Below are positions 43,569-61,718 of a DNA stretch of 64,000 bases, piece by piece. A model generated the notes under the pieces. The model worked only from the letters and a program-made list of their open reading frames with translations, made no database searches and was not told the DNA's origin. Every line of letters starts with the position of its first letter. Within the stretch, counting starts at the first letter, position 1. Origin of the DNA: a virus (Duplodnaviria > Caudoviricetes); the IMG/VR virus record IMGVR_UViG_3300048901_000236, positions 6,407-70,406 of that record; one strand, written 5' to 3'. The translations under genes were made by a program, and so were the position numbers.

Positions 43569-43733
43569 GTGACAACTGCGCCAGAATACGGGGATAGTAA
43601 GAATATCCTGCTCGCTCGCATAGTTCAGAAGAAGAGCGACGAGCACGGCGGAGCCTACGCACCCCGGTATGGCGATTCAAATTATCGGCTTTGGCAGAAA
43701 TGGGCCAAGCTGCTTTTCACTTATGGCCCGTAA
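43569..43733 (+). CDS. 54-aa protein with two PxYGDS repeats
   Basis: APEYGDSKNILLARI and APRYGDSNYRLWQKW. Confidence 0.6.
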   Translation: MTTAPEYGDSKNILLARIVQKKSDEHGGAYAPRYGDSNYRLWQKWAKLLFTYGP

Positions 43734-47537: not shown

Positions 47538-47578
47538 GCCGGGCCGTCTCTGACAAAGGGGCGGCCCGGCTAACTTTT
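47538..47578 (+). terminator. 13-bp hairpin plus T tract (putative terminator), overlapping a class II motif
   Basis: GCCGGGCCGTCTC-TGACAAA-GGGGCGGCCCGGC-TAACTTTT. Confidence 0.55.
47550..47577 (+). promoter_or_regulatory. class II promoter-like motif upstream of the glycosylation/terminase operon
   Basis: CTGACAA-N15-AACTTT. Confidence 0.55.
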
Positions 47579-47585
47579 CACCGTA

Positions 47586-47685
47586 GCTGATTGTCGTTCC
47601 CGACAAGGCCTGAGCGTGGTAGTAACCCACCGGGCAAGCGGATCGCTAGTGGAACGACGCAGCAACTCAATCCGAGAAATCGGAT
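47586..47685 (+). ncRNA. structured 5' leader / candidate cis-regulatory RNA
   Basis: GCTG..GTCGTTCC/GGAACGAC..CAGC closing stem around two hairpins, then ATCCGA-GAAA-TCGGAT; not assigned to a known family. Confidence 0.4.
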
Positions 47686-47711
47686 GTATCAAAGATCCGC
47701 TTCTTTCAAGC

Positions 47712-48464
47712 ATGATGAAAGCGCCACCGCGCACCCAGAAAATCTTGATCACGATTCCGTTCTGGAGTCGCGACCGTGACCAGGCGATGGAGCTGGCGCG
47801 GCTGTTGGCGGACCTGGAGCCGGCGCATTCCGAGATCGCTGACTTCGCGTTCGTATCCAGGCCGGACTCCAAACCGGCGGATCTGGAGACGTCCGCGCAC
47901 GTCTCTCGAAAGTTCAATCTCTATAACGTTGTGTCGAGCCGGAACGAAACTGGCTGGCCGGCGGGCTGCAATGGGACCTTCGCCGGCACTCTTGACTGGA
48001 CACTGCGTGGAATTTACAACGGGCAACTGCCGGCGTATCGGGGGATTTTCATTTGCGAATCCGACGCGTGCCCGCTTACGCGCAATCCGATCGGCTACAT
48101 TCACGGTGAATGGATGAAGCTGAAGAACAAGTGCGTCGCGGGCGCACTGATCCCCCCCGGACCTCACGGACGGGCTCATGTCAATGGCGGATGCTGCGTG
48201 ATCGACGCAGACCCGAAATTTTTGTCGTGGCTTGTTACTTCTGTCGGCGGCGCGATTGCAACTGGGAAGGCCGGATGGGATTGGTATCTTGCAGAGCAAT
48301 TCAAGATGAAAGGCTGGCAGGATCTGCCCGGGATCAAATCGCACTGGCAGCGGCCGACATTCGCCGAAGGCGAGTGGGATTCGGTTGTCAACGGCGGAGT
48401 CAAATGGCTACATGGTGTCAAGGACTATTCGCTGATCAATCTCGCCCGCCAGAAACTTTTATGA
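47712..48464 (+). CDS. glycosyltransferase-like (GT-A fold) protein
   Basis: Hydrophobic strand + ESDACP (DxD-like), GWPAGCN, HVNGGC, WDW; next to the sugar-nucleotide enzyme. Confidence 0.5.
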   Translation: MMKAPPRTQKILITIPFWSRDRDQAMELARLLADLEPAHSEIADFAFVSRPDSKPADLETSAHVSRKFNLYNVVSSRNETGWPAGCNGTFAGTLDWTLRGIYNGQLPAYRGIFICESDACPLTRNPIGYIHGEWMKLKNKCVAGALIPPGPHGRAHVNGGCCVIDADPKFLSWLVTSVGGAIATGKAGWDWYLAEQFKMKGWQDLPGIKSHWQRPTFAEGEWDSVVNGGVKWLHGVKDYSLINLARQKLL

Positions 48465-49147
48465 CCCACAAAGAAAAGAAACGGGCGTATGACATGGCCT
48501 ACCGGTCGGCGAATCGGCCCAAATTGTTGGCCCAGATGAAAGCGTATCGGGAAGCAAACCTGGGGAGAGTAAAAGCCCTAAGTAAAGCATATCGTGAAGC
48601 GAACCCCGAAAAAGTAGCCGCGCAGAAGAAAGCGTGGTGCGAGACGAACCGAGCAAAGCTATCGGCCATCCGTAAAGCGCGTTATGCGCTGAATTCCGAA
48701 GAAATTCTAGCCCGGAAAAGATTCCACTACGCCGCGGATCCCGAGAAAACTCAGGCCAGAAATAGGGCATGGCATACGGCTAATCCTGAAAAAGTCTTGG
48801 CCTATCGGAGAGAATACTATCGGCAACGTCTCGTCGGAGACCCTGAATTTCGGCTTCTTAAAAATCTCAGGACCAGAATAAACATGGCGATCCACCAAGG
48901 ATCTCGATCCGCGCGCACCCGGGATATTCTCGGATGCACAATTCCGGAACTCCGCGCGCATTTGGAAAAGCAATTTCGTCAAGGAATGACTTGGGAAAAT
49001 TATGGCCCGGTGTGGCATGTTGATCACATCAAGCCGTGCGCCAAATTCGATTTACTGGATCCTGCACAACAGCAGGAATGTTTTCATTACACGAACCTTC
49101 AGCCGCTTTTTGCGGAAGAGAATCTACGAAAAGGCGCACGAGTATGA
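48461..49147 (+). CDS. HNH homing endonuclease (paralog 2)
   Basis: Helical KAYREAN repeats; GMTWENYGPVWHVDH...CFHYTNLQPL..EEN.RK. Confidence 0.88.
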   Translation: MTHKEKKRAYDMAYRSANRPKLLAQMKAYREANLGRVKALSKAYREANPEKVAAQKKAWCETNRAKLSAIRKARYALNSEEILARKRFHYAADPEKTQARNRAWHTANPEKVLAYRREYYRQRLVGDPEFRLLKNLRTRINMAIHQGSRSARTRDILGCTIPELRAHLEKQFRQGMTWENYGPVWHVDHIKPCAKFDLLDPAQQQECFHYTNLQPLFAEENLRKGARV

Positions 49148-49935
49148 GTTTGAACCCCCCCGATCTGTTGGTCTCTGTCCATGGTTACGACGGCGACAAG
49201 AATCAAATCCAGAACGCTCTGAGATTCTACGAACATCACCAGGCACCCGTCGTGATTTTTTCCCCTGAAGATTCAAAAATCTCCCGCATGGGCCCTCACA
49301 TTTGTCGTTTCATAGGCAGGCGTCAATATATCGGCCAACTTTCTCTCGACCGGCAGAAGGCCCAGCTCGCGGCCTTGTTGGACTATACCGGGTTCAACTG
49401 GTTTTTAATGAACGATTCAGATTCTATCTGCGTCGAGCCGAAGTTGCCCGCATATCTTTTCGAGAGCCCAGAAACGCTTTGGTCCAACTCAGTGAGTGAT
49501 GCGATGCATGCTCGCCCAGAAAATTATCCCTATCCCCGGCTCGCATTTCAACCCCCCTATTTTTGTCATCGGTCGGTAATTCAGAAGTTGATTTCTGTGG
49601 ACGTGCCGGCCGATCCGACCACACCTTTTATCGATTGGTGGATGATGAGCGTCGCAATTGAAGCGCGCGTTCCATTCCAGAATTTTCGCGATGGGATAAG
49701 CTGTCCCACAAGTGACGAGGGTTCTCTGGCCGCGATGTCGGACGCTGTCACGAACCGAGGCGCGATCTTCTTGCATTCGATCAAAACTCTCCGTGCGCTG
49801 AACCAAGTGGTCGGATGCCGGAAGTATTACGTGCGGAAATTCGGGATCCCACAACACAGAGCAATGCCACGACCGATCCCGCCAGGCAAAGGAGTCTGGG
49901 TTAGATTCGATCAACGAAATGAAATCAAGCGATAG
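49144..49935 (+). CDS. glycosyltransferase-like protein
   Basis: WFLMNDSDSIC DxD motif after hydrophobic strand; HSIK C-terminal His; directly upstream of fcl. Confidence 0.5.
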   Translation: MSLNPPDLLVSVHGYDGDKNQIQNALRFYEHHQAPVVIFSPEDSKISRMGPHICRFIGRRQYIGQLSLDRQKAQLAALLDYTGFNWFLMNDSDSICVEPKLPAYLFESPETLWSNSVSDAMHARPENYPYPRLAFQPPYFCHRSVIQKLISVDVPADPTTPFIDWWMMSVAIEARVPFQNFRDGISCPTSDEGSLAAMSDAVTNRGAIFLHSIKTLRALNQVVGCRKYYVRKFGIPQHRAMPRPIPPGKGVWVRFDQRNEIKR

Positions 49936-50836
49936 AATTCTCGTCACCGGCGGAAACGGATTGATCGGCGGGGCGATTGTGCGCCGGCTGAAGCGTCTCG
50001 GATTCGAGAACATATTCGCCCCGACGCGCGCCGAAGTTGATCTCACGGATCCCATCGCGGTGCGGTGGATGTTTTCTGTTTATAAAATCGATTATGTTTT
50101 CCATTGCGCTGCTCGTGTGGGTGGCATTAAAGACAACGCGGAGAATCCTGTTGACTTTCTGGTCGAAAATCTTCGGATCCAAGACAACGTTTTGATGAAC
50201 GCGGCGAAGTATGAAGTGAAAAAACTTCTATTTCTCGCGTCGAGCTGTTGTTATCCGGACAATTCGCCGCAACCGCTCCAGGAGAAAATGCTTTTCACGG
50301 GATTGATCCATCCGGATACGGAGCCGTATGCGACCGCCAAGCTGGCCGGGATACGGCTGTGTCAATATCTTCGCAAGGCGCGAAAATGTAATTTTATTTC
50401 TGCGTTGCCGTGCAATGTGTTTGGTCCTGGCGACGATTTTAATCCCCGCACTGCGCACGTTGTATCCGGGCTGATTGCGCGGATGCACGCCGCGAAAATC
50501 TCCGACGCGCCGTTCAGTGTTTGGGGCGATGGATCCCAGCGGCGAGAGCTGATCTACGTCGAAGATCTGGTTGACGCATTGTTTTTATTGATGGATAAAT
50601 ATGATCGACCGGAGCCGATCAATGCCGGTAGTGGTATCGAATACACTGTCAAGCATCTGGCTTTCGAAATTGCCGAGACGGTAGGATTTAAAGAGGGAAT
50701 CCGATTCGACAACGCCGGGCATGTCGGGGTTCATCACAAGCTCATGGATAACTACAAACTGAACCAACTCGGATTCGCCGTGAAAACACCGCTGTCCGTC
50801 GCGCTGCGTTGGACTTATCTGGATTTCCTGAAATGA
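49919..50836 (+). CDS. fcl: GDP-L-fucose synthase (GDP-4-keto-6-deoxymannose epimerase/reductase)
   Basis: VTGGNGLIG, AARVGGI..N, SSCCYP, YATAK, NVFGP.D.F, HVV, WGDGSQRRELIYVEDL. Confidence 0.92.
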   Translation: MKSSDRILVTGGNGLIGGAIVRRLKRLGFENIFAPTRAEVDLTDPIAVRWMFSVYKIDYVFHCAARVGGIKDNAENPVDFLVENLRIQDNVLMNAAKYEVKKLLFLASSCCYPDNSPQPLQEKMLFTGLIHPDTEPYATAKLAGIRLCQYLRKARKCNFISALPCNVFGPGDDFNPRTAHVVSGLIARMHAAKISDAPFSVWGDGSQRRELIYVEDLVDALFLLMDKYDRPEPINAGSGIEYTVKHLAFEIAETVGFKEGIRFDNAGHVGVHHKLMDNYKLNQLGFAVKTPLSVALRWTYLDFLK

Positions 50837-51201
50837 GTTTGCAACGCGACACGGCGGAAGAATTGAAGATGGCAACGCCGCCTATTGAGACGGCGACTCG
50901 GCGATTTGTCTATCTAGCCGGATACGATCTCGATACGATTCCTCCCAGCATAGAGACCGCATGGCTGCGATGGGGCGGCCAGACAGAATTTGTTTATGAA
51001 AATGCGGATCCGGACAAGGTCGGGATTGTAATTTTTCAGCTATTGAATGCTCCGTATGTCCCCGTTAAACTCGCGGAAAGTTTGCGACCGTTTTATGCCA
51101 AGGCCGGCACGGAGGCGAATACATTTGAATTCGATCCGATAACAAAAACATTCACGCGTCGCGGCCCCGAGTGGTTGGACTTCCCCGGGAGGATCCAGTG
51201 A
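50833..51201 (+). CDS. hypothetical protein
   Basis: 122 aa, overlap-coupled to fcl and terminase. Confidence 0.55.
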   Translation: MSLQRDTAEELKMATPPIETATRRFVYLAGYDLDTIPPSIETAWLRWGGQTEFVYENADPDKVGIVIFQLLNAPYVPVKLAESLRPFYAKAGTEANTFEFDPITKTFTRRGPEWLDFPGRIQ

Positions 51202-53099
51202 GCCTCCCAGTAGATTGCGAACAGCGCGAGCTGGTAAACAATGTCAGCACGCTTTTGCACGAGGAGAAATTATTCGAGGCCGCTCGTCTAGTTGCGGACT
51301 GGGTTGGAGAATGCGCCGGCAAACGGGTAAAGCAACCTTCGGACAAGGCCGAGGCGTATCAGCTTCTGAATATCTTGCTGCACTGGCTGCTAGACAACAA
51401 TGGAATGGAGGAAGCGGCCCAGATGTTGTGGGGGCCCACTCAATTCGATCCGCGTCCGAACAGCACGCAGCGGGTTTGGAAAGCATTCGATGATCACAAT
51501 TTCATTTTGCTGATGGGGGCGGCGTCGATGTCGAAATCGTTTTCGATGGCGGTCCGGCTTTTTCTGGAATGGATCCGGGATCCAGAATACACAACGATCA
51601 AAGTTCTCGGTCCGAGTGAACAGCACTTGGAGGACAACCTTTTTTCTCACCTTGTCACACTGCATAAAGGCAGCACGATTCCGTTGCCAGGGACCGTCGG
51701 AAAACTTTTCATCGGTATGGACTCGCGGTCCCGCAAAGGATCGATCACCGGCGTAGTGATTCCTCTGGGCAAGAAGGCCGCCGGCCGACTTCAGGGTGTG
51801 AAGCGGGTCCCGCGCAAAAAGGCGCACCCGATTTTCGGAAAACTCTCCCGGATGTTTGTGTTCCTGGACGAAATCGCGAACATTCCGATCGGCATCTGGC
51901 GCGACATCGACAACATTCTTGGAAGCTCGTCCCAGGAAGGATTGAAAGTCATCGGCGCGTTCAACCCCACGGATCGATCTGACCCCGTCGGCGAGCGATG
52001 CGAACCGCCGTTCGGATGGCAATCGTTCGATGCCGACAAGCATCATGAGTGGATGTCCACTCGTCAATGGTTCGTAGTCCGTCTCGATGCCGCACTCTGC
52101 GAGAACGTCGTGGCCGGGAGGGAAATCTTCGCGGGGCTGCAAACGCTGGAGGGATTCAATCGGATCATTTCGAATAACGGCGGCACCAACTCTGCGAACT
52201 ACTGGTCGATGGCGCGCGGCTGTTTTCCGCCGCTCGGGACGATCATGTCGTTGATCCCGACAGGGATGCTGAATAATTTCAAGGGCGAATTCATCTGGTA
52301 TGAAAAGCCCAAGCCGGCCGGCGGAGTCGATCTTGCGTTGGAAGGATCCGACACGGCAAAATTTGCGCACGGCGAGTGGGGGCTTGCGACGGGAATAAAA
52401 TATCCGCCATCGTTGCAGCATCCGAACGGGCTAACAATCATGTTCAAGAACGCGAAGGGCAAAGCATATCCGCGCTACGCGCTTCAGCTCAAGCAAATTT
52501 TTTTGCTACCAAAGGGCGACACAGTCGCGATGAAAAAGTCGGTGCAGGAATTGGCGCAGCGATTAGGAATCACGCCGGAATGGCTGGCCGTCGATCGAAC
52601 CGGCAACGGCGCGGGCGTCCACGATCTTTTGAAATTCGAGTGGGGGATCGGCTGCATCGGGGTGAACTTTTCAGAGAGCGCCGGCGATCAGAAGATCATG
52701 GTTGAGGACTCCGGCACCGCGAAGGAATTATATGACCGCGCACAGACCGAACTTTGGTTCGCTGCGAAAAAGTTTTTGGAGTTTGAATATCTGAAGGGAG
52801 TCTTCGGGCTGGAGACCACGGAACTTTTTCTGCAACTCACGGGCCGACTCTACGAAGCCAACGGCAAAATGTCGAAGGTCGAAAAGAAGGCCGACTATCG
52901 TTCGCGTCATCAGGGGAAATCGCCCGACGACGCTGAAGCAGTCACGCTTTTGGTTTGTGCGTGCCGCAAGGCCAGCGGAGTTACACTCGGCATGCGATCG
53001 GAGAACACCGTCGGCGCGGACGAGGACGATGGAGATTATTACGAGGATTCGGGACCACGATGCGACGTCACAAATTCATTTTCGCACATTGATCTATGA
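51198..53099 (+). CDS. terL: terminase large subunit
   Basis: Walker A-like GAASMSKS, Walker B FVFLDE, coupling motif GAFNP, RNase H-like GVDLA, VDRTGNGAG, SPDDAEA. Confidence 0.85.
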   Translation: MSLPVDCEQRELVNNVSTLLHEEKLFEAARLVADWVGECAGKRVKQPSDKAEAYQLLNILLHWLLDNNGMEEAAQMLWGPTQFDPRPNSTQRVWKAFDDHNFILLMGAASMSKSFSMAVRLFLEWIRDPEYTTIKVLGPSEQHLEDNLFSHLVTLHKGSTIPLPGTVGKLFIGMDSRSRKGSITGVVIPLGKKAAGRLQGVKRVPRKKAHPIFGKLSRMFVFLDEIANIPIGIWRDIDNILGSSSQEGLKVIGAFNPTDRSDPVGERCEPPFGWQSFDADKHHEWMSTRQWFVVRLDAALCENVVAGREIFAGLQTLEGFNRIISNNGGTNSANYWSMARGCFPPLGTIMSLIPTGMLNNFKGEFIWYEKPKPAGGVDLALEGSDTAKFAHGEWGLATGIKYPPSLQHPNGLTIMFKNAKGKAYPRYALQLKQIFLLPKGDTVAMKKSVQELAQRLGITPEWLAVDRTGNGAGVHDLLKFEWGIGCIGVNFSESAGDQKIMVEDSGTAKELYDRAQTELWFAAKKFLEFEYLKGVFGLETTELFLQLTGRLYEANGKMSKVEKKADYRSRHQGKSPDDAEAVTLLVCACRKASGVTLGMRSENTVGADEDDGDYYEDSGPRCDVTNSFSHIDL

Positions 53100-53668
53100 A
53101 GATTTGTAAAAAATGTGGACGATCCGGGATGAGATTTCATCGAAACGCCAGTAAAAAAGACGGGCTCGCCTCTACATGTGTAGAATGCCATTCCGTCGCT
53201 AGCGAACGATGGGAAAAAGCGAACGTCGGGCGGATACGAGAGACAGCGAGAGCTTGGAAAGCAAATAACAAAGAGCGAGTCGAGTCCTTGAGGCGGGCGC
53301 GTCACAAGGAGAACCCGGAAAAGAGACGAGCTTATCAAAGATCTCGTCTACAATCAGATCCGGGATTTAGACTTCGGCGCAATCTTCAAAATCGGATCTG
53401 GATGACGGTAGTAAAAGGAGGCAAATCTGCCTCGACGTTAGAATTATTGGGGTGTACGATCCCGGAACTTCGCGCACATTTGGAATCGCAGTTCCGGCCC
53501 GGAATGACCTGGGAAAATTATGGTCCCGTGTGGCACATTGATCACCGTCGCCCGTGCGCGAGTTTTGATTTGCTGGATCCCGCACAACAGCGGGAATGTT
53601 TTCGTTACACGAATCTTCAGCCGCTTTTTGCGGAAGAGAACATAAGAAAGGGAGACAAATGCCACTAA
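53096..53668 (+). CDS. HNH homing endonuclease (paralog 3) with N-terminal Zn ribbon
   Basis: CKKC...KKDGLASTCVEC; same C-terminal GMTWENYGPVWHIDH...NLQPL..EEN. Confidence 0.88.
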   Translation: MKICKKCGRSGMRFHRNASKKDGLASTCVECHSVASERWEKANVGRIRETARAWKANNKERVESLRRARHKENPEKRRAYQRSRLQSDPGFRLRRNLQNRIWMTVVKGGKSASTLELLGCTIPELRAHLESQFRPGMTWENYGPVWHIDHRRPCASFDLLDPAQQRECFRYTNLQPLFAEENIRKGDKCH

Positions 53669-54258
53669 GATTCAAGGCCGGATTGTATCCGGTTGGAGGA
53701 CGATATTTCATTGATTCGGATGGAGTAAAGCATAAGGCGGAGAACTTCGATATTTTAGCTGTGCGAGTGGCGGCCTATCGAAAACGGAATAATTTGCCGC
53801 CGGGCGATCCACTAAATGAGATTCATGCACAAGTCTGCGCTCGACAGCCGGAGGGTTGTGCAGAGACAAATCCTCAGCCGGTTGTCACCGCCCCGCCGCA
53901 ATCCGCATCATCTATGCGGTTGCCGGTCGGCGATCTTACGAATCGAGTCACGAAGTGGTTTGCGCACTTGCTGGGAATGAAACGCCGGGGCGAAATCGGC
54001 AAGGTCAGCATAGATGAAGCACGCCGGCGCGCGGCGATTTGCGCGGGTTGTCCGCTTCAGAGGGACGTTTCATCGGCATGCGGGGCCTGCAAAGCCAGCC
54101 GGCGGGCGGCGAGCGATGCTATTTTGGAGGGCAGTAAGCGTGTAAACAGCAAATTGAAGGCATGTCAGGCCTTGGGCGAGGACACCGGGCTTGCGGTTCA
54201 TTTGAATCTCGGGCCAACGGGCAATGGAAGCCTGCCAGATCATTGCTGGAGGCGGTAA
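53659..54258 (+). CDS. Cys-rich hypothetical protein
   Basis: RRAAICAGCP...CGAC...C...CW pattern. Confidence 0.6.
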   Translation: MPLRFKAGLYPVGGRYFIDSDGVKHKAENFDILAVRVAAYRKRNNLPPGDPLNEIHAQVCARQPEGCAETNPQPVVTAPPQSASSMRLPVGDLTNRVTKWFAHLLGMKRRGEIGKVSIDEARRRAAICAGCPLQRDVSSACGACKASRRAASDAILEGSKRVNSKLKACQALGEDTGLAVHLNLGPTGNGSLPDHCWRR

Positions 54259-54259
54259 A

Positions 54260-54505
54260 ATGAGATTTCCTAATCCTTTTGGACTTTTTATGGCCGGTTG
54301 TAGAGTAATTAAGGCGAAATTTACCCGCCAAGCGGTGCTTTTGGATGAAGAAACCGTGAATGAACGGCTGGCGGCGTGCGAAGCGTGTCCGTTTTTCGAT
54401 CCCGGGATCCGGCAATGCAACGTTTGCACCTGTCTGGTCGATCTCAAGGCCGCCCTGGCGACGGAAAAATGCCCGAAACGGCGCTGGCCGGTGACCAACA
54501 AGTGA
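54260..54505 (+). CDS. small Cys-rich protein (DUF6171-like)
   Basis: RLAACEACP...QCNVCTCLV..K...EKCP...W. Confidence 0.65.
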   Translation: MRFPNPFGLFMAGCRVIKAKFTRQAVLLDEETVNERLAACEACPFFDPGIRQCNVCTCLVDLKAALATEKCPKRRWPVTNK

Positions 54506-54506
54506 C

Positions 54507-54534
54507 TTGACAAGCCCCGACACCGCACAACTTT
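54507..54534 (+). promoter_or_regulatory. class II promoter-like motif upstream of portal
   Basis: TTGACAA-N15-AACTTT, 9 nt before ATG 54544. Confidence 0.65.
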
Positions 54535-54543
54535 ACTACCAGC

Positions 54544-56649
54544 ATGCTGCCTAACGAAATATACGCACCCCAACCGGATAATCAATCTCCTTATGGTGGT
54601 GCGGTTTCATCTCCAGATCTGTCGGACAGCACTCTGAAGCCGAAAAATCGCGCCATACGTGACGCAAAGCAGGCACAGAATATCATCACGAGTCTCGAAG
54701 TCGCCAACAAAGAGCGCAATCTGAAGAATGCGCGCATCATGGCGAAGTATAATAGCGAGCGGCCATATACGCAACAGCAATTGGAGAGCGAAGGGCTCGG
54801 ATGGAAGTCAAATTTCACATCGAAACCGCTGCCGATGTTGATTGATAAAGTTGCGCCCCGGTTCACCCAGGCGATCGACGGGGTCAAGTATATCACCAAC
54901 TCAGCATTGCCGGATGATGTCGAAGGGGCGTCTGAAAAAACGGACGCGTTTCGGCGGGAAATCACCAGCGTAGCCCGGGCTCGGCCCGGATGGCGCGAAT
55001 TCATGTCCGAAATCGGCCAGGAAAACGCATTGTTTGGCTACACAGCGGCTGCGTGGCTCGATGAATTCTCGTGGTTCCCGAAATTCTTTCGTCAGGATCA
55101 ATTTTTCATTCCCACGGGCACCAAGCAATCGCCGTCCGGAGCGCAGATCGTCGCGCTGCGTGAAACTTTTCTGTTGCACGAGCTGTTCTCGTTGATCTCG
55201 GACAAAGAAGCCGCGATCGCGCGCGGTTGGAACATCCAGGAGACCGTCACTGCGATCAATGAGGCGATGCCGGAGGACCGGCGTAGTCGGCAGACGGATT
55301 ATTGGCGCGTCTACGAGGACATGATTCGTGAATCGGTCGTCGGGACGTCGTATGAGAATGGCGCGCGGGTCGTGACCGTGTGGCATTTGCTTGCGACGGA
55401 GATCGATGGCAAGATCTCACACTACATTTTCAACAACACGAGCTTCAAGGAGCTTTTTTCGGCCGAGGATCAGTTCGATTCGATGATGGACGCCGTTGCG
55501 TTCTTCAGTTTTCAGCAGGGCAACGGAACGATGCATGGAAGCAAGGGCATCGGCCGCGAAATCTACGCGATGGCCGGGATTTTGGATCGCAGCCGCAATG
55601 AGGTTGTCGATCGGTTGAATCTCGCTGGCAAATTGATCATACAGGGCGATGAAAAGCAGCTCCGGCGGTTCAAAATGTCGATCGTCGGCAATACGATTCT
55701 GATCGGCGAAGCGTTCACCGTCGTCGAGCATAAAATCGATGCGGCGGTCGAGCCGTTTTTGACGCTGGATAATTTTTTGACTGGGCTGCTCGATCAAATG
55801 GCGGGATCGACGACTCCGAAGGTGTTTGAGGGCGAGCGGGTGACGAAAGCCCAGGTCGATTTATTCGCCAGTCGCGAGGAGGAGACCCGGGATTCGATCA
55901 TCGGCCGATTTTTAAGTCAGTTTGCTACAATGGTCACTACCATGCAACGGCGCATGTGTGATCCGCATACGTCAGATAAGGATGCGAAAGACATGCAAGA
56001 GCGGCTGCTCAAAATCATGACCCGCGAGGAGCTGACGCAGTTGTCGAAGCAGGTTGTGGCGGAGACGGTGAAGGATTATACCGATGTAGAACGTCAGCAG
56101 GTCGTGCTCGTCGCCCAGGAGGCGCGTGGGAATCCGCTTTATAACGCAAAGGAGCTGGAGCGGCGAAAAGTTACCGCATTGATCAACGAAGAATTTGCGG
56201 ACGCAGTTCTTTTGCCCGACAATGATCCTACGGTCGAAGCCGAACAAACGCGGTTGCAACAGATGGAGCTTTTGCTCATAGTCGGACAAGCGACGGCAGT
56301 TCCGGTTTCTCCGCGCGACAATCATTTGATTCATCTCGGAATTTTGATGCCAGTGATGGAACAGACCGCCCAGCAAGCGGTGCAGAATCCCAAAGCGCTG
56401 GATGTTTTGAGCGCTGTGCTGGCCCACGCAGAGGCCCACTTTCAGGCGGCCGAAGCCCAGGGGACTCCGAAAGATCAACTCGCGGATATCGGGTCAAAAC
56501 TTACGCAGCTTCGCAGTGTGATTGATCGGCTTCATCAAAACGCCGCCCAGGCGCAGCAAGTGGATCAAGCCACTCAGGCCCGACAGGGACAAATCGATCA
56601 AGCCGCCGCGGCTATTCCGGCCCCGCCGGCGCAGATACCCACACAATAA
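54544..56649 (+). CDS. portal protein
   Basis: 701 aa, helical, Gln-rich C-terminus; position between terminase and scaffold/capsid. Confidence 0.7.
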   Translation: MLPNEIYAPQPDNQSPYGGAVSSPDLSDSTLKPKNRAIRDAKQAQNIITSLEVANKERNLKNARIMAKYNSERPYTQQQLESEGLGWKSNFTSKPLPMLIDKVAPRFTQAIDGVKYITNSALPDDVEGASEKTDAFRREITSVARARPGWREFMSEIGQENALFGYTAAAWLDEFSWFPKFFRQDQFFIPTGTKQSPSGAQIVALRETFLLHELFSLISDKEAAIARGWNIQETVTAINEAMPEDRRSRQTDYWRVYEDMIRESVVGTSYENGARVVTVWHLLATEIDGKISHYIFNNTSFKELFSAEDQFDSMMDAVAFFSFQQGNGTMHGSKGIGREIYAMAGILDRSRNEVVDRLNLAGKLIIQGDEKQLRRFKMSIVGNTILIGEAFTVVEHKIDAAVEPFLTLDNFLTGLLDQMAGSTTPKVFEGERVTKAQVDLFASREEETRDSIIGRFLSQFATMVTTMQRRMCDPHTSDKDAKDMQERLLKIMTREELTQLSKQVVAETVKDYTDVERQQVVLVAQEARGNPLYNAKELERRKVTALINEEFADAVLLPDNDPTVEAEQTRLQQMELLLIVGQATAVPVSPRDNHLIHLGILMPVMEQTAQQAVQNPKALDVLSAVLAHAEAHFQAAEAQGTPKDQLADIGSKLTQLRSVIDRLHQNAAQAQQVDQATQARQGQIDQAAAAIPAPPAQIPTQ

Positions 56650-56650
56650 C

Positions 56651-56968
56651 ATGCAACTACCCACGAAACAGGAAACTCCTTGGGAGTCTTCTGACGCCTC
56701 CGCATTGCGTCTATTTTTCGAATCGAAAACTGGTCAGCGTGCGTTGACACATTTGAATGATCTAATTCCTTCTCTTCTCGACGGCTCCGACGTCAATAAG
56801 ACGCTCGTCACCAACGGAGAAGTTAAGGGCTGGAATAATGCGCTGCGCGCACTTTTGAATTTGACAATCGAACAACCCGCACCAATCAAAATTCCCGAAG
56901 CGTATCCGTCGCTCGATGACGAAGATGCATGGAAGGAAGACAAGAAACCCGAAACCACGAACCCGTAA
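56651..56968 (+). CDS. small head-associated protein (Bbp19-like)
   Basis: FFESKTGQRALTHL pattern directly after the portal. Confidence 0.5.
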   Translation: MQLPTKQETPWESSDASALRLFFESKTGQRALTHLNDLIPSLLDGSDVNKTLVTNGEVKGWNNALRALLNLTIEQPAPIKIPEAYPSLDDEDAWKEDKKPETTNP

Positions 56969-56973
56969 CCATC

Positions 56974-58269
56974 ATGCCCGAAGACACACGCCCCATCGAC
57001 CAGATCCCCGGCTTTGATCAATTGCCGTCGATCGATCCCGAAACTTCATCCGCGCTCGACGCGTTGCTCGCCAAACAAACCGGCGAACCCGCTCCGAAAG
57101 ATGAGCCGGCCCCGAAGGATGAACCCGCGCCGAAGGACGAGCCCGCTCCGAAAGATGAGCCGGCCCCGAAGGACGAGCCCGCTCCGAAAGATGAGCCGGC
57201 CTCGAAGGACGAGCCCGCGCCCAAGGACGAGCCCGCTCCGAAAGACGAGCCGACCGCCAAGAAACCAGTTTCGGATGATCTCGACAGCGTCGCGCTTCCG
57301 CCATACACCAAGAGCAAAACCACGGAAGCTTTTGATCAGGTCAAGGCACTCGCGCGCGAGAAGATTTCCGTTTTGGAGACCGAACGGGACGCTCTGAAAA
57401 AGCAAAACGAAGAATTGGCGGCCAAAGCCAAGCAGGGAATCCCTAAAGAGATCGAAGCGGAGCTGAAGGAATTGCGCGAATTCCGTAACAAGCTGGATGT
57501 CGATGCAGATCCCGAATTCAAAAAGTTCGACGAACAGATAAAGGCTAATGACGAAGCCGTGTATTCTCGCATGCTCGCGTCCGGGCTCACCCAGGAGCAC
57601 GTCGAGCAGGTGAAAAAAGCTGGCGGTCCGGCGGCCATCGATTGGGATTCTGTCGCCAGCAAAATGCCGGCTGCGCTGAAGCGTTTCATCGACGCGAAGC
57701 TCGTGGAGAACGAGACCCTGGCGGACAAGAAGGCTCGCACATTGGAGGAGACGAAGAAGAACGCAACGGAATACATTCAGAACAAGCAAGCGGCGGCCGA
57801 AACCGCGCGTGCCGAGAGCACACGAGCCGCGCAGGCGAATGTGGACGAGCTAGTTCCACAGCTTGGATGGCTGGAAGTTCGAAAACCCAAGGCCGACGCG
57901 AGCGATGCCGAGAAAACTATTATTGCAGAGCACAACAAATTGGTCGAAGAGGCCCAAGGATTTTTGAAGGACGCTGTTGCCGATGATTCTCCCGCCGCCC
58001 GGGGACTTTTGGCAGTCGGATATGTGCAACTTTTAAAATTGAGACAAGATACGGCTTTTATGAAAGCCGCGCATGCCGCCAAGGTCAAAGAATTGGAAGG
58101 AAAACTCAAGGAGACCACGGAAATGCTGGAGCGGGTCAAAAAAAGTTCTACTACGCGGCTTCGCAATTCCCCGGCCGACGAAACGCCCACCCCGAAACGG
58201 CTCGATGCCGTCAACGTTTCCGGAAGCGAAGCGCTCGACGCGCACTTCAAAGCCGCCCAGGGCAAATAA
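56974..58269 (+). CDS. capsid scaffolding protein
   Basis: Acidic/Pro-rich N-terminus, long Glu/Lys/Ala coiled coils; upstream of the capsid gene. Confidence 0.65.
   Translation: MPEDTRPIDQIPGFDQLPSIDPETSSALDALLAKQTGEPAPKDEPAPKDEPAPKDEPAPKDEPAPKDEPAPKDEPASKDEPAPKDEPAPKDEPTAKKPVSDDLDSVALPPYTKSKTTEAFDQVKALAREKISVLETERDALKKQNEELAAKAKQGIPKEIEAELKELREFRNKLDVDADPEFKKFDEQIKANDEAVYSRMLASGLTQEHVEQVKKAGGPAAIDWDSVASKMPAALKRFIDAKLVENETLADKKARTLEETKKNATEYIQNKQAAAETARAESTRAAQANVDELVPQLGWLEVRKPKADASDAEKTIIAEHNKLVEEAQGFLKDAVADDSPAARGLLAVGYVQLLKLRQDTAFMKAAHAAKVKELEGKLKETTEMLERVKKSSTTRLRNSPADETPTPKRLDAVNVSGSEALDAHFKAAQGK
57085..57246 (+). repeat. nine tandem 18-bp units encoding (EPAPKD)9
   Basis: Synonymously varied units; unit 7 is EPASKD. 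Confidence 0.95.
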
Positions 58270-58274
58270 TCGCC

Positions 58275-59111
58275 ATGAGCGACGACACCACGAAAGCAAC
58301 TCCCCAAATGTGGGAGGGACGGCAAGTCATGCTGTGCCTCCCTCACTACAAAACGTCTAATCCGCGGACTACCTTTTCGTTGATGGCGATGTTCGATCGT
58401 CGCCGCATGGCGCAGTCGTTGGATTTCGGTGATGCCTTCGTCGCGCATTCCCGCAACAAACTTGCAGCCGGTTTTCTCCGGTCAAAAATGGAGTGGGCGC
58501 TGTTCGTCGACGACGACAACGTGCCGCCCTTCGGAAACGCTGCGCTATACAATTCGTTCACCGGGTTCAATCTGCCCGACAAGTTCGCGGGGATGCATGG
58601 GATTGATCGGCTCATGAGTCATGGAAAAACCCTGATCGGCGGGCTCTACCGCGGCCGATGGCCCCAGTCCGGGCCGGTCTTCGGCGAGGGTCCGGCGTTC
58701 CAACGATACCTGGAAGAAGCTCCGCGAGACGAAGTCCGGGAAACGCAATGGGTCGGATTCGGCTTCGTGCTTGTTCATCGCAGCGTTTTTGAGGACATCG
58801 AAAAGGCGTTCCCGGATCTCGCGCGCGAGGAGGATGGATCCGGCGGAAATTGGTTTACGTCGTCCGAACACGATCTGGTCAAGGCAGTTCAGGAAGCGCT
58901 GGCCGAGTCGGATCCGGAAAAAATGCGGAAGATTCTGGAACTCGGGCTGGCCAAATCCAATCGCACGAGCAATCTCGGGGTGGGCGAGGACGTCATTTTT
59001 TGCCGGCGCGCGGCCCAGGCGGGGCACCAGTGTTTTGTCGATCTGGGCTGCATCGTGGCCCATCTAGGCGAATTTCCATACGGGTATCCCACGAAGCGTC
59101 GCTTATTGTGA
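58275..59111 (+). CDS. family 2-like glycosyltransferase (GT-A)
   Basis: SRNKLA, WALFVDDD, IGGLY, GFGFVLVHRSVFE, GEDVIFC, VAHLG. Confidence 0.82.
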   Translation: MSDDTTKATPQMWEGRQVMLCLPHYKTSNPRTTFSLMAMFDRRRMAQSLDFGDAFVAHSRNKLAAGFLRSKMEWALFVDDDNVPPFGNAALYNSFTGFNLPDKFAGMHGIDRLMSHGKTLIGGLYRGRWPQSGPVFGEGPAFQRYLEEAPRDEVRETQWVGFGFVLVHRSVFEDIEKAFPDLAREEDGSGGNWFTSSEHDLVKAVQEALAESDPEKMRKILELGLAKSNRTSNLGVGEDVIFCRRAAQAGHQCFVDLGCIVAHLGEFPYGYPTKRRLL

Positions 59112-59494
59112 AGCCCCGATCTCCCGAACATCGGAAGCATTTGGCAGAGCAGGCCCGGCAATGGCGGATAAAGAATCCGGTCCGTCGACGAATAAATCGT
59201 CGGAGTTATGATCTGAAGAAGAAATATGGTCTGTCGTTGGAGCAATTTGAAAATATGCTCAACGCGCAGGGAGGAGTATGCGCGATTTGTCGGAAGAAAA
59301 CCGTTCGCATGGCCGTCGACCATTGTCATAAAACCGGCAAAATTCGTGGCATTTTGTGCATCCAATGCAACCCGGGTCTTGGAAAATTTTTTGATTCCCC
59401 CGATCTTTGCCGGCGAGCGGCAGAATATCTGGAGCGGCACCAAAACTTATTACTTGACAAATCCTCGTCGGGCGCAACTTTCCCACTGAGCTAA
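59108..59494 (+). CDS. endonuclease VII-type homing endonuclease
   Basis: KKYGL....F..ML..QGGVCAIC...VDHCH.TGKIRGILC..CN.GLG.F.D; GTGA overlap. Confidence 0.9.
   Translation: MKPRSPEHRKHLAEQARQWRIKNPVRRRINRRSYDLKKKYGLSLEQFENMLNAQGGVCAICRKKTVRMAVDHCHKTGKIRGILCIQCNPGLGKFFDSPDLCRRAAEYLERHQNLLLDKSSSGATFPLS
59454..59481 (+). promoter_or_regulatory. class II promoter-like motif upstream of major capsid
   Basis: TTGACAA-N15-AACTTT. Confidence 0.65.
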
Positions 59495-59620
59495 AATGTC
59501 TCCCTGCTATGCTCCGGCAGGGAATCGGCCTAATGTCGCGTCGGATGGCCTCGATGCGAAAACGGAACCGGCGTAACCCGGTAAAACGACAATCGCCCAA
59601 AATTCTGGGCAAAGACATTT
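59494..59620 (+). promoter_or_regulatory. structured 5' leader of the capsid gene
   Basis: Four hairpins enclosed by AAATGTC/GACATTT pairing that ends at the ATG. Confidence 0.45.
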
Positions 59621-60928
59621 ATGGCAGACTGTATTACCCCAGCGGCCTTGTCCGACATCGCGCAGAAAGATTCCTCGCGTTTGGTTGGTCAGATCGCGAA
59701 AGCCCTCGCGGCTAACTCCCCTTTCATCAACGTAATTGGCGGCGGGACTTTCCCGTCCGGGGTTTCCGATGAAATTAGAACGTCGGTTCAGCAACAGGCG
59801 GCTCCTGGCGATTCCCTCGCCTTGCCCACTTTCGTGTGCGACACCGAATTGTGCGGCACTGTCGGTCTCCAGGATCTGACCGATGCGATCGATTTCACTG
59901 CCCGCCTCGAATCGAAGCGTGGTTTCGGTCCCCGGGTTTGCGTCAAGAAAGGCTATTCGGCCTTCAAGACGTCCTACCTCGCGGCCGAGGATTCCCTCAA
60001 AAAGCTGATGACGCAATACATCAATTCCGATGTGCGCGCCCAGCTCTACCTCCGCTCCGCCTCGAAATTCGTGGCTGCGGTCGGCTGGGACTTCAACTCC
60101 CTGTTCACCGGCGGCAATGAAACCGACGTCGGGGTCAAGTTCGCGCCGATCACCCCCACCGCGCCGATCAGCTTCAAAGCTCTCCATGCAATCGCCCGCT
60201 ACCTCAAGGAAGCGCTGTTCGCCGAGATGTTCGACGCCGGCGGCAAGGGCATGCCCAACTTCCGATTCATCGGCAGCTCGGACATCATCGAGTCGTTCCG
60301 CAATGAGATCGGCGTCAAGGACGTTCTGTGCTGCTTGACCACTGGTCAATACAAGCTCGGCGAAGTGGCAGTTTCCGCCTACTCCTTCGAGCAGGCCCCC
60401 GCCTATCGCGGCATTTCTTTCGGAACCGATCAGCGCCCGCTTCGCTCGAACGGCTTCAACGCCGACGGCACGCTGAATCTGATCGATCCAGTGATCACGG
60501 TGGTCAACACCTGCAAAAACACGGCGTATGCCAAGGCGAACCCCGCATGGCTCACCGCCAGCAACGAAGTCGGCTTCCTTTTCGCTGACAACTCGTTCAA
60601 CCGGTTGACTCCGGAACGCTACACTGGCGAGGGGACTTTCAAGTTCGCTCCTCAGCTTTTCGCCGGCGAACTCGACTGGCACTACGTGATCGACAATGAT
60701 TGCAACGTCTTCGGCGATTTCGGTTGGCATACGTATCAGATTACGCGCGCCTACCAGCCGGTGCGTCCGCAGCACATTGTGCCGATTCTTTACAAACGCT
60801 GCTTGGCCGATCTGGGCCTCGAAGTGTGTGACCCGGCCAGCGCTTCCAGCTACAGCGGTGCGGACTCGTTTGCAACGCTCGGCGTGTGCGAGGCGGAAGA
60901 TTGCAACAACCCCGGCGGTTGCGTCTAA
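59621..60928 (+). CDS. major capsid protein
   Basis: 435 aa after the scaffold, own promoter-like motif, followed by a strong terminator, strongly C/G-ending codons. Confidence 0.75.
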   Translation: MADCITPAALSDIAQKDSSRLVGQIAKALAANSPFINVIGGGTFPSGVSDEIRTSVQQQAAPGDSLALPTFVCDTELCGTVGLQDLTDAIDFTARLESKRGFGPRVCVKKGYSAFKTSYLAAEDSLKKLMTQYINSDVRAQLYLRSASKFVAAVGWDFNSLFTGGNETDVGVKFAPITPTAPISFKALHAIARYLKEALFAEMFDAGGKGMPNFRFIGSSDIIESFRNEIGVKDVLCCLTTGQYKLGEVAVSAYSFEQAPAYRGISFGTDQRPLRSNGFNADGTLNLIDPVITVVNTCKNTAYAKANPAWLTASNEVGFLFADNSFNRLTPERYTGEGTFKFAPQLFAGELDWHYVIDNDCNVFGDFGWHTYQITRAYQPVRPQHIVPILYKRCLADLGLEVCDPASASSYSGADSFATLGVCEAEDCNNPGGCV

Positions 60929-61008: not shown

Positions 61009-61203
61009 ATGATTATGATACCGGAATGGGTGAAAGTAAAAGTCGTTGCAATTACCGGCTTGGCGACCACTGCACTGCCGACTTTTTGGGATCACGTCAG
61101 CCCAATCCTGGATGTCTTGATCAAGGTCGGTCAAGTCGGGGTTGCCGCGGTCACAATCGGATATGTCTACACGAAATGGCGCAACGCGCGCCGAAAGAAA
61201 TGA
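61009..61203 (+). CDS. holin-like small membrane protein
   Basis: Two hydrophobic segments and a basic C-terminus (KWRNARRKK). Confidence 0.5.
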   Translation: MIMIPEWVKVKVVAITGLATTALPTFWDHVSPILDVLIKVGQVGVAAVTIGYVYTKWRNARRKK

Positions 61204-61718
61204 AACGAATTTTTTCCATCCTGGCCGCTCTTGTGTTGACCGGCTGTAGTCTCATACCGCTGGCCCCCGGACACGCCAGTTTTCGTTCTGAGAACGGCTC
61301 GACATACGAAGTCCAGCAATCGCAGAATCCAAAAACGGCGACGACTCAGAAATACGAGCGAACAAAGGACGGAACCGAGAAATTTGAAACCACGATCGGC
61401 GCGGCCCAGAAGGATACCGCTCGCGAGATGGCCGCGAAATTGTCTTCTCTCAAGGGGGTCGTTTGGATCGGGATTTTGGTGTTTTTGTTTGGCGTCGCAT
61501 CCTTTGTATGGCCGCCATTAAAAGTCATCGTCGGCGGGAGCGTCACGACCAGCGCAGTGATTGCTGCGGCCGGCCTCGCGTTAATCATTTTGCCGAGTCT
61601 TTTGGTCGGACACGAGATCCTAATCCTGGCAGTTTGTGCTGGCGTGGCCGGGATCTATTGGTTTGCTCACCGACACGGAACTTTAAAGGGCGTGATCGAT
61701 ACTCTGAAGGAGAAATAA
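61200..61718 (+). CDS. lipoprotein with three C-terminal TM helices (spanin-like candidate)
   Basis: MKRIFSILAALVLTGC lipobox; polar linker; three hydrophobic segments. Confidence 0.55.
   Translation: MKRIFSILAALVLTGCSLIPLAPGHASFRSENGSTYEVQQSQNPKTATTQKYERTKDGTEKFETTIGAAQKDTAREMAAKLSSLKGVVWIGILVFLFGVASFVWPPLKVIVGGSVTTSAVIAAAGLALIILPSLLVGHEILILAVCAGVAGIYWFAHRHGTLKGVIDTLKEK

Follow-up and report, generated by a model that had tools for sequence, protein, structure and literature searches.

To our knowledge, glycosylation of the virion has been demonstrated in few viruses, namely mycobacteriophages among the viruses of bacteria, and chloroviruses and giant viruses among those of eukaryotes. Phage-encoded fcl is already known from cyanophages, whose gmd/fcl clusters are usually read as auxiliary genes acting on the host surface, and the eukaryotic giant virus PBCV-1 makes both GMD and GMER. 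Among mycobacteriophages, O-glycosylation of the capsid or virion is described for Che8, Rita and others of cluster F1 (Freeman et al., 2023; PMC11256854, PMC12619734), with the glycans placed at the C-termini of the subunits that form the capsid and the tail tube (Freeman et al., 2023, cited in PMC12619734). In PBCV-1 the capsid protein Vp54 is glycosylated by virus-encoded glycosyltransferases such as A64R, together with virus-encoded GDP-fucose synthesis (PMC5408694, PMC7019647, PMC9614988).

We describe a locus in an uncultured ~70-kb phage (genome 70,406 bp, 97% complete), from which a stretch of 64,000 nucleotides, referred to here as the window, was analysed. Positions 47712-59111 of the window encode three soluble GT-A-fold glycosyltransferases (GTA1, GTA2 and GTA3) and an intact GDP-L-fucose synthase (Fcl), interspersed with the genes for the terminase, the putative portal, the scaffold-like protein and the presumed capsid protein. 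Phage-encoded glycosyltransferases are shown in the mycobacteriophages, and proposed here, to glycosylate structural proteins; the presumed capsid protein here likewise has a conserved Ser-rich C-terminal tail, and the structural neighbours of GTA3 include gp87 of the cluster-F mycobacteriophage Ardmore. The present lineage is, however, unrelated and uncultured, its glycosyltransferase families differ and are absent from Pfam, and it adds genes for sugar-nucleotide synthesis and for sulfo- and pyruvyl-modification. Its genes lie within head and packaging operons, whereas those of Maravista lie near the genome 3' end (PMC11256854). PBCV-1 and this phage both encode cytoplasmic GT-A transferases and GDP-sugar enzymes, those of PBCV-1 serving the capsid glycan, and A64R (2p72/2p73) matched GTA2 structurally (E 2e-6 in Foldseek; Z 12.0 in VIA-align). 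The phage, in contrast, has Fcl only, and its glycosyltransferase genes are clustered in a morphogenesis module while those of PBCV-1 are scattered.

All features that a first-pass annotation had listed for the segment were recovered in their places (Table 1), although it had overlooked a 122-aa ORF that separates fcl from terL and, within the module, three HNH/endonuclease VII genes. These genes qualify its description of glycosyltransferases and fcl coupled by overlaps directly upstream of terL: the overlaps are there, but HNH1 intervenes between GTA1 and GTA2 (joined to both by ATGA overlaps) and the 122-aa ORF between fcl and terL. The latter had no family match in profile library searches and has weak homologues in the same position in two relatives (L002 and L005). 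The likely start of terL is the GTG at 51198, overlapping the stop of this ORF, and from the junctions the glycosylation genes are all translationally coupled with packaging genes. For the class II promoter-like motif TGACAA-N15-AACTTT, the window has five copies where 0.07 would be expected. Three same-class copies would define three units, the first running GTA1-HNH1-GTA2-Fcl-orf-TerL-HNH2, the second portal-scaffold-GTA3-HNH3, and the third beginning with the presumed capsid gene. The suggestion that all the glycosyltransferase and fcl genes follow such motifs held for the copy before GTA1 but not for GTA3, which has no copy immediately in front of it; the plus-strand positions (before GTA1, the putative portal and the presumed capsid gene) put GTA3 inside the portal operon. 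The other two copies are found amid non-structural genes and on the minus strand, so the motif alone is no proof of late timing.

Table 1. Features of the glycosylation and head/packaging module (positions in the window).
Feature	Position	Strand	Basis or remark
Class II promoter-like motif TGACAA-N15-AACTTT	47551..47577	+	Before GTA1; heads the GTA1-to-terL unit
GTA1, 250-aa soluble GT-A-fold glycosyltransferase	47712..48464	+	Atlas structural neighbours
HNH1, free-standing HNH/endonuclease VII-type homing endonuclease	48461..49147	+	Between GTA1 and GTA2; phrog_1035 at 3e-10, C-terminal part
GTA2, 263-aa GT31-like GT-A glycosyltransferase	49144..49935	+	AF2 pLDDT 90.8; Foldseek and VIA-align
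Fcl, GDP-L-fucose synthase (GDP-4-keto-6-deoxy-D-mannose 3,5-epimerase/4-reductase), intact	49919..50836	+	PF01370 at 1.7e-59
122-aa ORF between fcl and terL	50833..51201	+	Translationally coupled to fcl and terL
Large terminase (terL)	51198..53099	+	phrog_2 at 3.6e-11
HNH2, second HNH/endonuclease VII homing endonuclease	53096..53668	+	phrog_1035 at 8.5e-15; ATGA overlap with terL
Class II motif	54508..54534	+	Ahead of the putative portal - scaffold - GTA3 - HNH3 unit
Putative portal, 701 aa	54544..56649	+	Size and position only; conserved, syntenic in all relatives
Scaffold-like protein	56929..58269	+	Position and composition; syntenic in relatives
GTA3, 278-aa GT-A glycosyltransferase	58275..59111	+	AF2 pLDDT 84; Foldseek matches all GT-A
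HNH3, 128-aa endonuclease VII-type homing endonuclease	59108..59494	+	phrog_2914 at 3e-35; GTGA overlap with GTA3
Class II motif	59455..59481	+	Ahead of presumed capsid gene, within 3' end of HNH3
Presumed major capsid protein, 435 aa	59621..60928	+	Size, order and conservation only
Ser-rich, Cys-flanked C-terminal tail of presumed capsid protein	60830..60925	+	Consensus SS[FY][ST]G[AS]D.F.T.GVC

The 435-aa protein is presumed to be the capsid protein, and the portal and scaffold labels were likewise given by size, order and conservation only; none of the libraries searched bore these three labels out. No other protein of the module is as conserved as the 435-aa protein, which has a mean column identity of 73% over 29 relatives. 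Searches of Pfam, PHROG and PDB sequences gave no match to it, and the only capsid-family hint is an Atlas feature, carried by 13% of members, that points to PF13252 clusters. Its Ser-rich tail is kept across relatives, with most distant homologues stopping before it, and is the candidate glycan acceptor by inference only. The putative portal had no family match in Pfam, PHROG and further profile searches. The scaffold-like protein, with no match in Pfam or PHROG, consists of about 10 PAPKDE repeats together with a lengthy helical, charged region.

None of the three glycosyltransferases has a transmembrane segment. GTA1 had no Pfam or PHROG match; its fold was assigned by comparing the Atlas model only, and the exact-protein ESM-Atlas model (pTM 0.91) has GT8, GT31/Fringe and GT2 neighbours at TM 0.62-0.70. 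Invariant positions in the family alignment are D118, H156-x-N-G, W189-D190 and H234-G-x-K237, and of the E-S-D at the DxD position only D118 is invariant. GTA2 aligned in VIA-align to CHSY3 at Z 18.0 (rmsd 3.4 A, 210 residues) and to C1GalT1, B3GalT5/6 and B3GNT2 at Z 15-16.5. Its D91-S-D93 follows strand 86-91, with D91, D93, H211 and K214 all invariant. Its likeness to CAZy GT31 is structural only, as no Pfam match (Galactosyl_T or Fringe) appeared even at E 10. The GT31 PDB entries matched by GTA2 carry UDP or UDP-sugars, which counts against virion glycosylation as set out below. For GTA3, 647 homologues scored at E<=0.001 and 505 of 1000 chains reached a VIA-align Z of at least 8, including Mimivirus R699 (16.7), STIV A197 (16.4), Mnn9 (16.3) and COLGALT1 (15.9). 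The modelled folds, together with a DxD or xxD motif in each, point to membership of all three in the GT-A structural superfamily. GTA2 has in common with CAZy GT31, and GTA3 with GT25, GT62 and GT2, the GT-A Rossmann-like fold, the DxD behind the central strand and a C-terminal His; the matches of GTA2 and GTA3 to solved GT-A structures span 180-220 residues at Z 15-18 with 9-18% sequence identity, and none of the GT31, GT25, GT62 or GT2 Pfam models matched either protein.

GTA3 had been described as a GT2-like gene between scaffold and capsid. Its position and GT-A fold bear this out, but the GT2 profile match does not (Glyco_tranf_2_3 at E 0.2 over 22 residues), and PF00535 retrieved nothing in the whole genome while matching 14/14 control genomes. 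Its E238-D239 resembles the GT2 catalytic base, suggesting that it may work in a GT2-like manner outside GT2 membership as judged by profile. In VIA-align, GTA3 matched best to the middle GT-A-like domain of LH3 (residues 293-521; Z 17.9, rmsd 2.6 A, 183 residues), which is regarded as non-catalytic, and the gene is a core gene directly behind the scaffold gene. GTA3 could thus be a non-catalytic morphogenetic factor, or the GT-A proteins could act on something other than the virion, for instance the scaffold, a small molecule or a sensor of host defence. We consider this quite improbable: D79-D80-D81, directly behind strand 74-78, and E238-D239 are invariant in 35 relatives down to 50% identity, which argues for catalysis, and synthesis of a real glycan is implied by the enzymes of sugar-nucleotide supply and sugar modification encoded alongside.

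Fcl matched the E. coli GDP-fucose synthetase 1bsv over its full length (E 6e-63), and its best 18 PDB matches were all GDP-fucose synthases (E 6e-63 to 6e-37), with the next family at 2e-16. Against NF047922 it scored 300.8 bits (protein 4-304, profile 2-302 of 308; next family 55 bits), which is below the equivalog cut-off of 500 bits. The NADPH motif GxxGxxG is kept (GGNGLIG at 11-17), as are the Ser-Tyr-Lys triad and the Cys/His epimerisation pair, with S108, C110, Y137, K141 and H180 aligning with S107, C109, Y136, K140 and H179 of 1bsv. The lack of a GDP-mannose dehydratase in the window extends to the whole genome, where a PF16363 search retrieved only Fcl itself. A true Gmd (461-463 bits) is present in two relatives (L040 and L046), and Fcl occurs without Gmd in the cassettes of 14 of the 21 relatives that have Fcl. 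The absence of gmd from the genome and these Fcl-only cassettes are both consistent with the proposal that the 4-keto intermediate is drawn from the host. The first-pass annotation had further called a phage fcl in the head operon unusual; within the lineage this did not hold, as 21/53 relatives have fcl in the interval from the scaffold-like gene to the presumed capsid gene.

These relatives belong to a large group of uncultured ~70-75 kb phages that gave no sequence match among 50,697 phage records. Homologues of the presumed capsid protein are encoded on 368 confirmed stretches in an IMG/VR scan, and the 53 dereplicated relatives were recruited via this protein alone. GTA3 is in first position directly after the scaffold gene in 53/53 capsid-anchored loci and is followed by GTA1 in 50. 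Between this pair and the capsid gene lies a variable cassette of GTA2 copies, Fcl, Gmd, other epimerases/SDRs, Polysacc_synt_2, sulfotransferase, polysaccharide pyruvyl transferase and homing endonucleases. GTA2 is thus an accessory gene of the lineage. In the co-occurrence check proposed earlier, a sugar-nucleotide enzyme is found in 25/26 loci with GTA2 and in 4/27 without it, as raw counts uncorrected for shared ancestry. GTA1, GTA2 and Fcl are upstream of terL only in the subclade of the window and beside the presumed capsid gene in nearly all other relatives; the relocation is thus derived. Judged by gene order, the window is a rearranged copy of the lineage-wide variable cassette. HNH3 occupies the slot that the cassette fills in relatives, and an HNH gene is the final gene before the presumed capsid gene in 13/53 of them. 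The split layout, the proposed Fcl-only reliance on a host intermediate and the link to homing endonucleases are new.

The variation of the cassette, with sulfo- and pyruvyl-transferases and several SDRs, is O-antigen-like. Cytoplasmic GT-A enzymes, moreover, commonly use lipid-linked sugars as substrates. The enzymes could therefore alter the LPS, capsule or S-layer glycan of the infected cell, blocking superinfection or keeping progeny off debris, as has been proposed for the gmd/fcl/glycosyltransferase clusters of T4-like cyanophages. In one of these, Synechococcus phage S-SCSM1, the GDP-L-fucose synthase is ~42% identical to Fcl over the full length and is encoded next to a GDP-mannose dehydratase in an auxiliary cluster that is not virion-associated; here, in contrast, there is no gmd, and the genes to which fcl is coupled are glycosyltransferases and terL. 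Remodelling of the host envelope appears unlikely on this comparison of loci, given the position between scaffold-like and presumed capsid genes kept in every relative, the translational coupling to packaging genes and transferases lacking a transmembrane segment. The cassettes examined, moreover, contained neither a flippase nor a polymerase, and neither an acyltransferase nor a membrane component of Gtr type. Lasting serotype conversion is also unlikely because no tyrosine integrase was found in the genome. A Gtr-type serotype-converting prophage system was considered separately and rejected on this ground and on the soluble nature of the transferases. The sole recombinase in the genome is a 243-aa resolvase-type protein; such a small serine recombinase may allow lysogeny, and this counts against virion glycosylation.

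Because GTA1, GTA2 and Fcl adjoin terL, the first-pass annotation had also offered decoration of the DNA during packaging. Phage glycosyltransferases that decorate DNA with varied glycans exist (10.1101/2023.12.21.572611; PMC13326640), and here they would act before or during packaging to evade restriction. The known routes all begin with a hydroxylated pyrimidine, for which either a TET/5mYOX enzyme or, typically, a homologue of thymidylate synthase is needed (PMC13326640). No thymidylate-synthase homologue (PF00303, Thymidylat_synt) was found in the genome, with 10/14 control genomes matched, so DNA glycosylation is disfavoured; a Tet_JBP (PF12851) search gave no match in the genome, and none in the control genomes either. 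In nearly all relatives, moreover, the same genes are beside the capsid gene rather than terL. We regard this alternative as highly improbable.

Late cytoplasmic glycosylation of a virion protein is, with modest confidence, the best reading of the locus. The late decoration of the virion proposed earlier stands as the best-supported account on comparative genomics only, with a candidate acceptor. Counted in its favour are the GT-A folds with DxD motifs and no transmembrane segment, the intact Fcl, the conserved synteny, the variable set of glycan-building genes and its co-occurrence with GTA2, the promoter-like motifs, the coupling to packaging genes, the precedents in mycobacteriophages and chloroviruses, and a genome in which Gmd, tyrosine integrase and thymidylate-synthase homologue were searched for and none found. 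Counted against it are the positional labels of the head genes and the ability of soluble GT-A enzymes to use, as an alternative, sugars linked to undecaprenyl on the inner face of the membrane. In the proposed mechanism, Fcl would convert GDP-4-keto-6-deoxy-D-mannose made by the host into GDP-L-fucose, the phage having no Gmd of its own, and the three soluble, DxD-type (metal-dependent) GT-A enzymes would decorate a structural protein with a short glycan while it is still in the cytoplasm, either ahead of head assembly or in the course of it. Since GTA3 is universal and GTA1 nearly so, these two would lay a conserved core, and GTA2, found almost only alongside sugar-nucleotide enzymes, would add or extend a variable outer part, probably fucose-containing here. 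As acceptor, the presumed capsid protein would be likeliest, at its conserved Ser-rich C-terminal tail.

As a more tentative proposal, this whole lineage may carry an O-antigen-like, rapidly diversifying glycan locus that serves its own capsid. Such a locus would have a fixed GTA3 and GTA1 core and swappable outer modules for fucose, other deoxyhexoses, sulfate and pyruvate, with recurrently flanking, free-standing homing endonucleases driving cassette exchange and, as in the present genome, translocation. Its Fcl-only variant would divert host GDP-4-keto-6-deoxymannose to a sugar that the host may not display.

The split layout indicates that the module is still functionally coherent when physically divided and points to homing endonucleases as the agents that reshuffle it. 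The three transferases, the one Fcl and the defined candidate acceptor tail supply a concrete set for testing. If the lineage does glycosylate its capsid, a large group of environmental phages would share this trait universally, as an ancient and hypervariable one, and GT-A families unnamed in any sequence library would be in use. The surface of these phages would also gain an extra layer of variation, which could affect stability, adsorption, recognition by defence systems and grazing.

The glycosylation genes of the phage lie within one co-oriented module on the plus strand, spanning 47551-60928 of the window. The window covers positions 6407-70406 of an IMG/VR record of 70,406 bp rated 97% complete. 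ATGA or GTGA overlaps are found at nearly all junctions from GTA1 to HNH2 and again at GTA3/HNH3, and a 17-nt overlap joins GTA2 and Fcl (GTA1-GTA3, predicted soluble GT-A-fold glycosyltransferases; Fcl, GDP-L-fucose synthase; HNH1-HNH3, HNH/endonuclease VII-type homing endonucleases). The window contains five copies of the promoter-like class II motif TGACAA-N15-AACTTT compared to 0.07 expected by chance; two of the five copies are on the minus strand, so the motif does not prove late timing. No Shine-Dalgarno sequence was recognisable within 20 nt upstream of the start codons of Fcl, the portal gene, MCP and the three glycosyltransferase genes, and this absence at the examined late genes may be a clue to the host.

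Features of the glycosylation and head module and of neighbouring or related genes in the window
Feature	Position	Strand	Remarks
Resolvase-type serine recombinase, 243 aa	33753-34484	-	PF00239, 1e-29
GIY-YIG/NUMOD3 gene	43669-44400		
Class II promoter-like motif, first	47551-47577	+	First of three in module
GTA1	47712-48464	+	
HNH1	48461-49147	+	
GTA2	49144-49935	+	
Fcl	49919-50836	+	
122-aa ORF	50833-51201	+	Between Fcl and TerL
TerL	51198-53099	+	Likely start GTG 51198
HNH2	53096-53668	+	
220-aa ORF		+	After HNH2, before second motif
Class II motif, second	54508	+	Before putative portal gene
Putative portal protein, 701 aa		+	After second motif; positional label
105-aa ORF		+	Between putative portal and scaffold-like genes
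Scaffold-like protein, 446 aa	56929-58269	+	About ten tandem PAPKDE hexapeptides at about 57090-57300, then a long charged, probably coiled-coil part; positional label
GTA3	58275-59111	+	
HNH3	59108-59494	+	
Class II motif, third	59455	+	Before presumed capsid gene
Presumed major capsid protein, 435 aa	59621-60928	+	Positional label
Lipoprotein-like gene	61026-61718		Directly after presumed capsid gene; signal LTGCS
Collagen-repeat fibre gene, first	61720-62859		PF01391; PHROG tail-fibre family; Cys-rich N-terminus, G-x-K triplets
Collagen-repeat fibre gene, second	63092-63706		PF01391; PHROG tail-fibre family

None of the three glycosyltransferases had a match in Pfam, NCBIfam or the PDB by phmmer/hmmsearch, and PHROGs gave two matches only, both to GTA3 (phrog_1574, function unknown, 6.5e-14; a glycosyltransferase family, 5.7e-05). 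As the sequence libraries were near-silent, comparison of folds was needed. The AlphaFold model of GTA3 (pLDDT 84) matched exclusively GT-A enzymes, the top Z score being 17.9 to residues 293-521 of LH3, a GT-A-like domain, followed by Mimivirus R699 (16.7), STIV A197 (16.4), Mnn9 (16.3) and COLGALT1 (15.9). The GTA2 model (pLDDT 90.8) gave Z scores of 18.0 to CHSY3, 16.5 to C1GalT1, 15-16 to B3GalT5/6 and B3GNT2, and 12 to the chlorovirus capsid glycosyltransferase A64R; as modelled, GTA2 is GT31-like. For GTA1, an ESM Atlas model of the exact protein (pTM 0.91) had neighbours that include GT8, Fringe/GT31 and GT2 clusters (TM 0.62-0.70). Invariant acidic residues occupy the expected structural position of the DxD motif in GTA3 (DDD 79-81, with a further invariant ED at 238-239) and in GTA2 (D91-x-D93), and GTA1 has one invariant Asp (D118). 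No transmembrane segments were found in any of the three. The families comprise 647 homologues for GTA3 (E ≤ 0.001), 304 for GTA2 and 29 for GTA1, the last by word-indexed search, with far more recovered by tblastn and HMM search. An H-[GS]-x-K motif is common to the C-termini of GTA1 and GTA2. Paralogy of the three proteins was considered and was not demonstrable, with profile-profile links absent (hhalign probability 2-6%).

A search of IMG/VR seeded with GTA3 recovered 65 loci, and in most of these the stretch from GTA3 to the presumed capsid gene, not the region upstream of terL, contains the GTA1, GTA2 and Fcl homologues. To avoid the bias of glycosyltransferase seeding, a second search started from the presumed capsid protein; 368 stretches were confirmed as coding for a relative, of which 80 loci were retained, with synteny counted over 53 dereplicated loci holding both scaffold-like and capsid genes. 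GTA3 directly follows the scaffold gene in all 53. In 50 of them GTA1 is located after GTA3 and ahead of the capsid gene; the three exceptions are members of the window's own subclade. The remainder of the interval, which holds a variable cassette of glycan-building genes, can be empty or as long as about 4 kb and shows 21 different layouts, with GTA2 in 26 loci (up to two copies), Fcl in 21 and a true GDP-mannose 4,6-dehydratase (Gmd; 461-463 bits to PF16363) in 10, together with other SDR epimerases, a sulfotransferase (PF13469, 2e-28) and HNH or GIY-YIG endonucleases. A sugar-nucleotide enzyme was present in 25 of the 26 loci with GTA2 compared to 4 of the 27 without (Fisher 7e-10, uncorrected for shared ancestry). 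Between them, the cassettes of three relatives (L007 11477-12427, L033 11475-12494, L057 11493-12635) carry sulfotransferase, polysaccharide pyruvyl transferase and Polysacc_synt_2 4,6-dehydratase genes, which implies that some members of the lineage make glycans that are charged or modified in other ways. Relatives also have glyco genes at a second site, upstream of terL, though less regularly: a GT4 in L040 and a Polysacc_synt_2 gene in L002. In another relative (L020 836-3248) three tandem paralogous ORFs of 262-295 aa precede terL; their N-termini are GT-like by eye, and they had no match to Pfam or to the HMMs of the three glycosyltransferase families. Searches by tblastn against 50,697 phage records gave no cultured relative of the lineage, and no published description of the lineage or the cassette was found in the literature.

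Fcl is the sole enzyme among the glyco genes of the module to be named by the sequence libraries. It matched PF01370 (1.7e-59) and, over its full length, the GDP-L-fucose synthase family NF047922 at 300.8 bits (strict equivalog cut-off 500 bits; next family 55 bits), and its 18 best matches in the PDB were all GDP-fucose synthases, the top one being E. coli 1bsv (6e-63). Alignment to 1bsv showed that Fcl retains the GxxGxxG motif and every one of the catalytic residues (Ser, Cys, Tyr, Lys, His). A PF16363 search of the genome for Gmd found Fcl itself and nothing else, so the phage needs GDP-4-keto-6-deoxy-D-mannose from its host. The first-pass annotation had proposed virion fucosylation with such a host-derived 4-keto intermediate, and the lack of Gmd in a 97%-complete genome is consistent with that source. 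A host making this intermediate for another 6-deoxyhexose would suffice. Fcl without Gmd is the commoner state among Fcl-bearing relatives (14 of 21, counted in the cassette only; Gmd could lie elsewhere in their genomes).

A virion protein is the best-supported target of glycosylation, because the core glycosyltransferases keep an invariant place after the scaffold-like gene and before the presumed capsid gene, and the glyco genes are translationally coupled with the packaging genes and have a promoter-like motif in common with the portal and capsid genes. The solubility of the enzymes and the absence of a tyrosine integrase, none having been found in the genome, also favour this reading, as do two precedents, virion glycosylation in mycobacteriophages (PMC11256854, PMC12619734) and in chloroviruses (PMC5408694). 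Modification of the host envelope is a less probable alternative; in its favour, lipid-linked sugars are among the substrates open to cytoplasmic GT-A enzymes, and the variation of the cassette resembles that of an O-antigen locus. Phage DNA is an unlikely target, since known DNA glycosylation (PMC13326640) begins with hydroxylated pyrimidines, typically from thymidylate-synthase homologues, and a search of the genome found no such homologue.

Among virion proteins, the presumed capsid protein carries a candidate glycan acceptor. Its C-terminus is a Cys-flanked, Ser-rich tail (about residues 404-435; consensus SS[FY][ST]G[AS]D.F.T.GVC) that is conserved throughout the lineage, and most of its distant homologues stop before this tail. 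We infer that the tail may receive the glycan; mycobacteriophages are reported to carry glycans on the C-termini of their capsid and tail-tube subunits (PMC12619734, citing Freeman et al., 2023). The names portal, scaffold and capsid are assigned by position. The 435-aa protein had no match with Pfam, PHROGs or two PDB profile searches, and Pfam gave none for 29 relatives or for 30 distant homologues that an exhaustive profile search had returned. A scan of the genome with Pfam capsid models gave no match, nor did tblastn of the protein, or of two of its distant homologues, against the 50,697 phage records; one capsid lead was obtained, an Atlas feature lead to PF13252. Directly after the presumed capsid gene comes an unexpected neighbour, a gene conserved among many of the relatives; the C-terminal half of its product is strongly hydrophobic (Kyte-Doolittle 19-residue maximum 2.46). 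Collagen was also considered as an acceptor, prompted by the likeness of GTA3 to collagen galactosyltransferases and by the two collagen-repeat fibre genes downstream of the head genes. It was rejected as the GT-A matches of GTA3 are generic and no 2OG-Fe(II) oxygenase, a potential maker of hydroxylysine, was found in the genome, which leaves collagen-type Hyl glycosylation unsupported.

In the window GTA1, GTA2 and Fcl precede terL, and this layout is derived. In a quick tree of the presumed capsid protein, midpoint-rooted for drawing only, the window groups with the relatives L001, L002 and L005 (SH-aLRT 99), nested inside groups with the cassette at the capsid site. In L002 and L005, too, GTA1 and Fcl precede terL, and hardly anything lies between GTA3 and the capsid gene. 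The nesting and this layout together suggest, as the simplest account, one relocation in the ancestor of the subclade. A serine recombinase was the sole recombinase found in the genome, and a similar gene lies just upstream of terL in two relatives (L040 1420-2181, L012 2413-3132). The window also encodes a GIY-YIG/NUMOD3 protein, beside the three HNH/endonuclease VII-type genes of the late operons. HNH3 fills the slot vacated after GTA3. Relatives have HNH genes at these positions as well, most often as the final gene ahead of the presumed capsid gene (13 of the 53), and HNH genes also lie between glycosyltransferase genes. This recurrent association suggests that homing endonucleases may promote exchange and relocation of the cassette.
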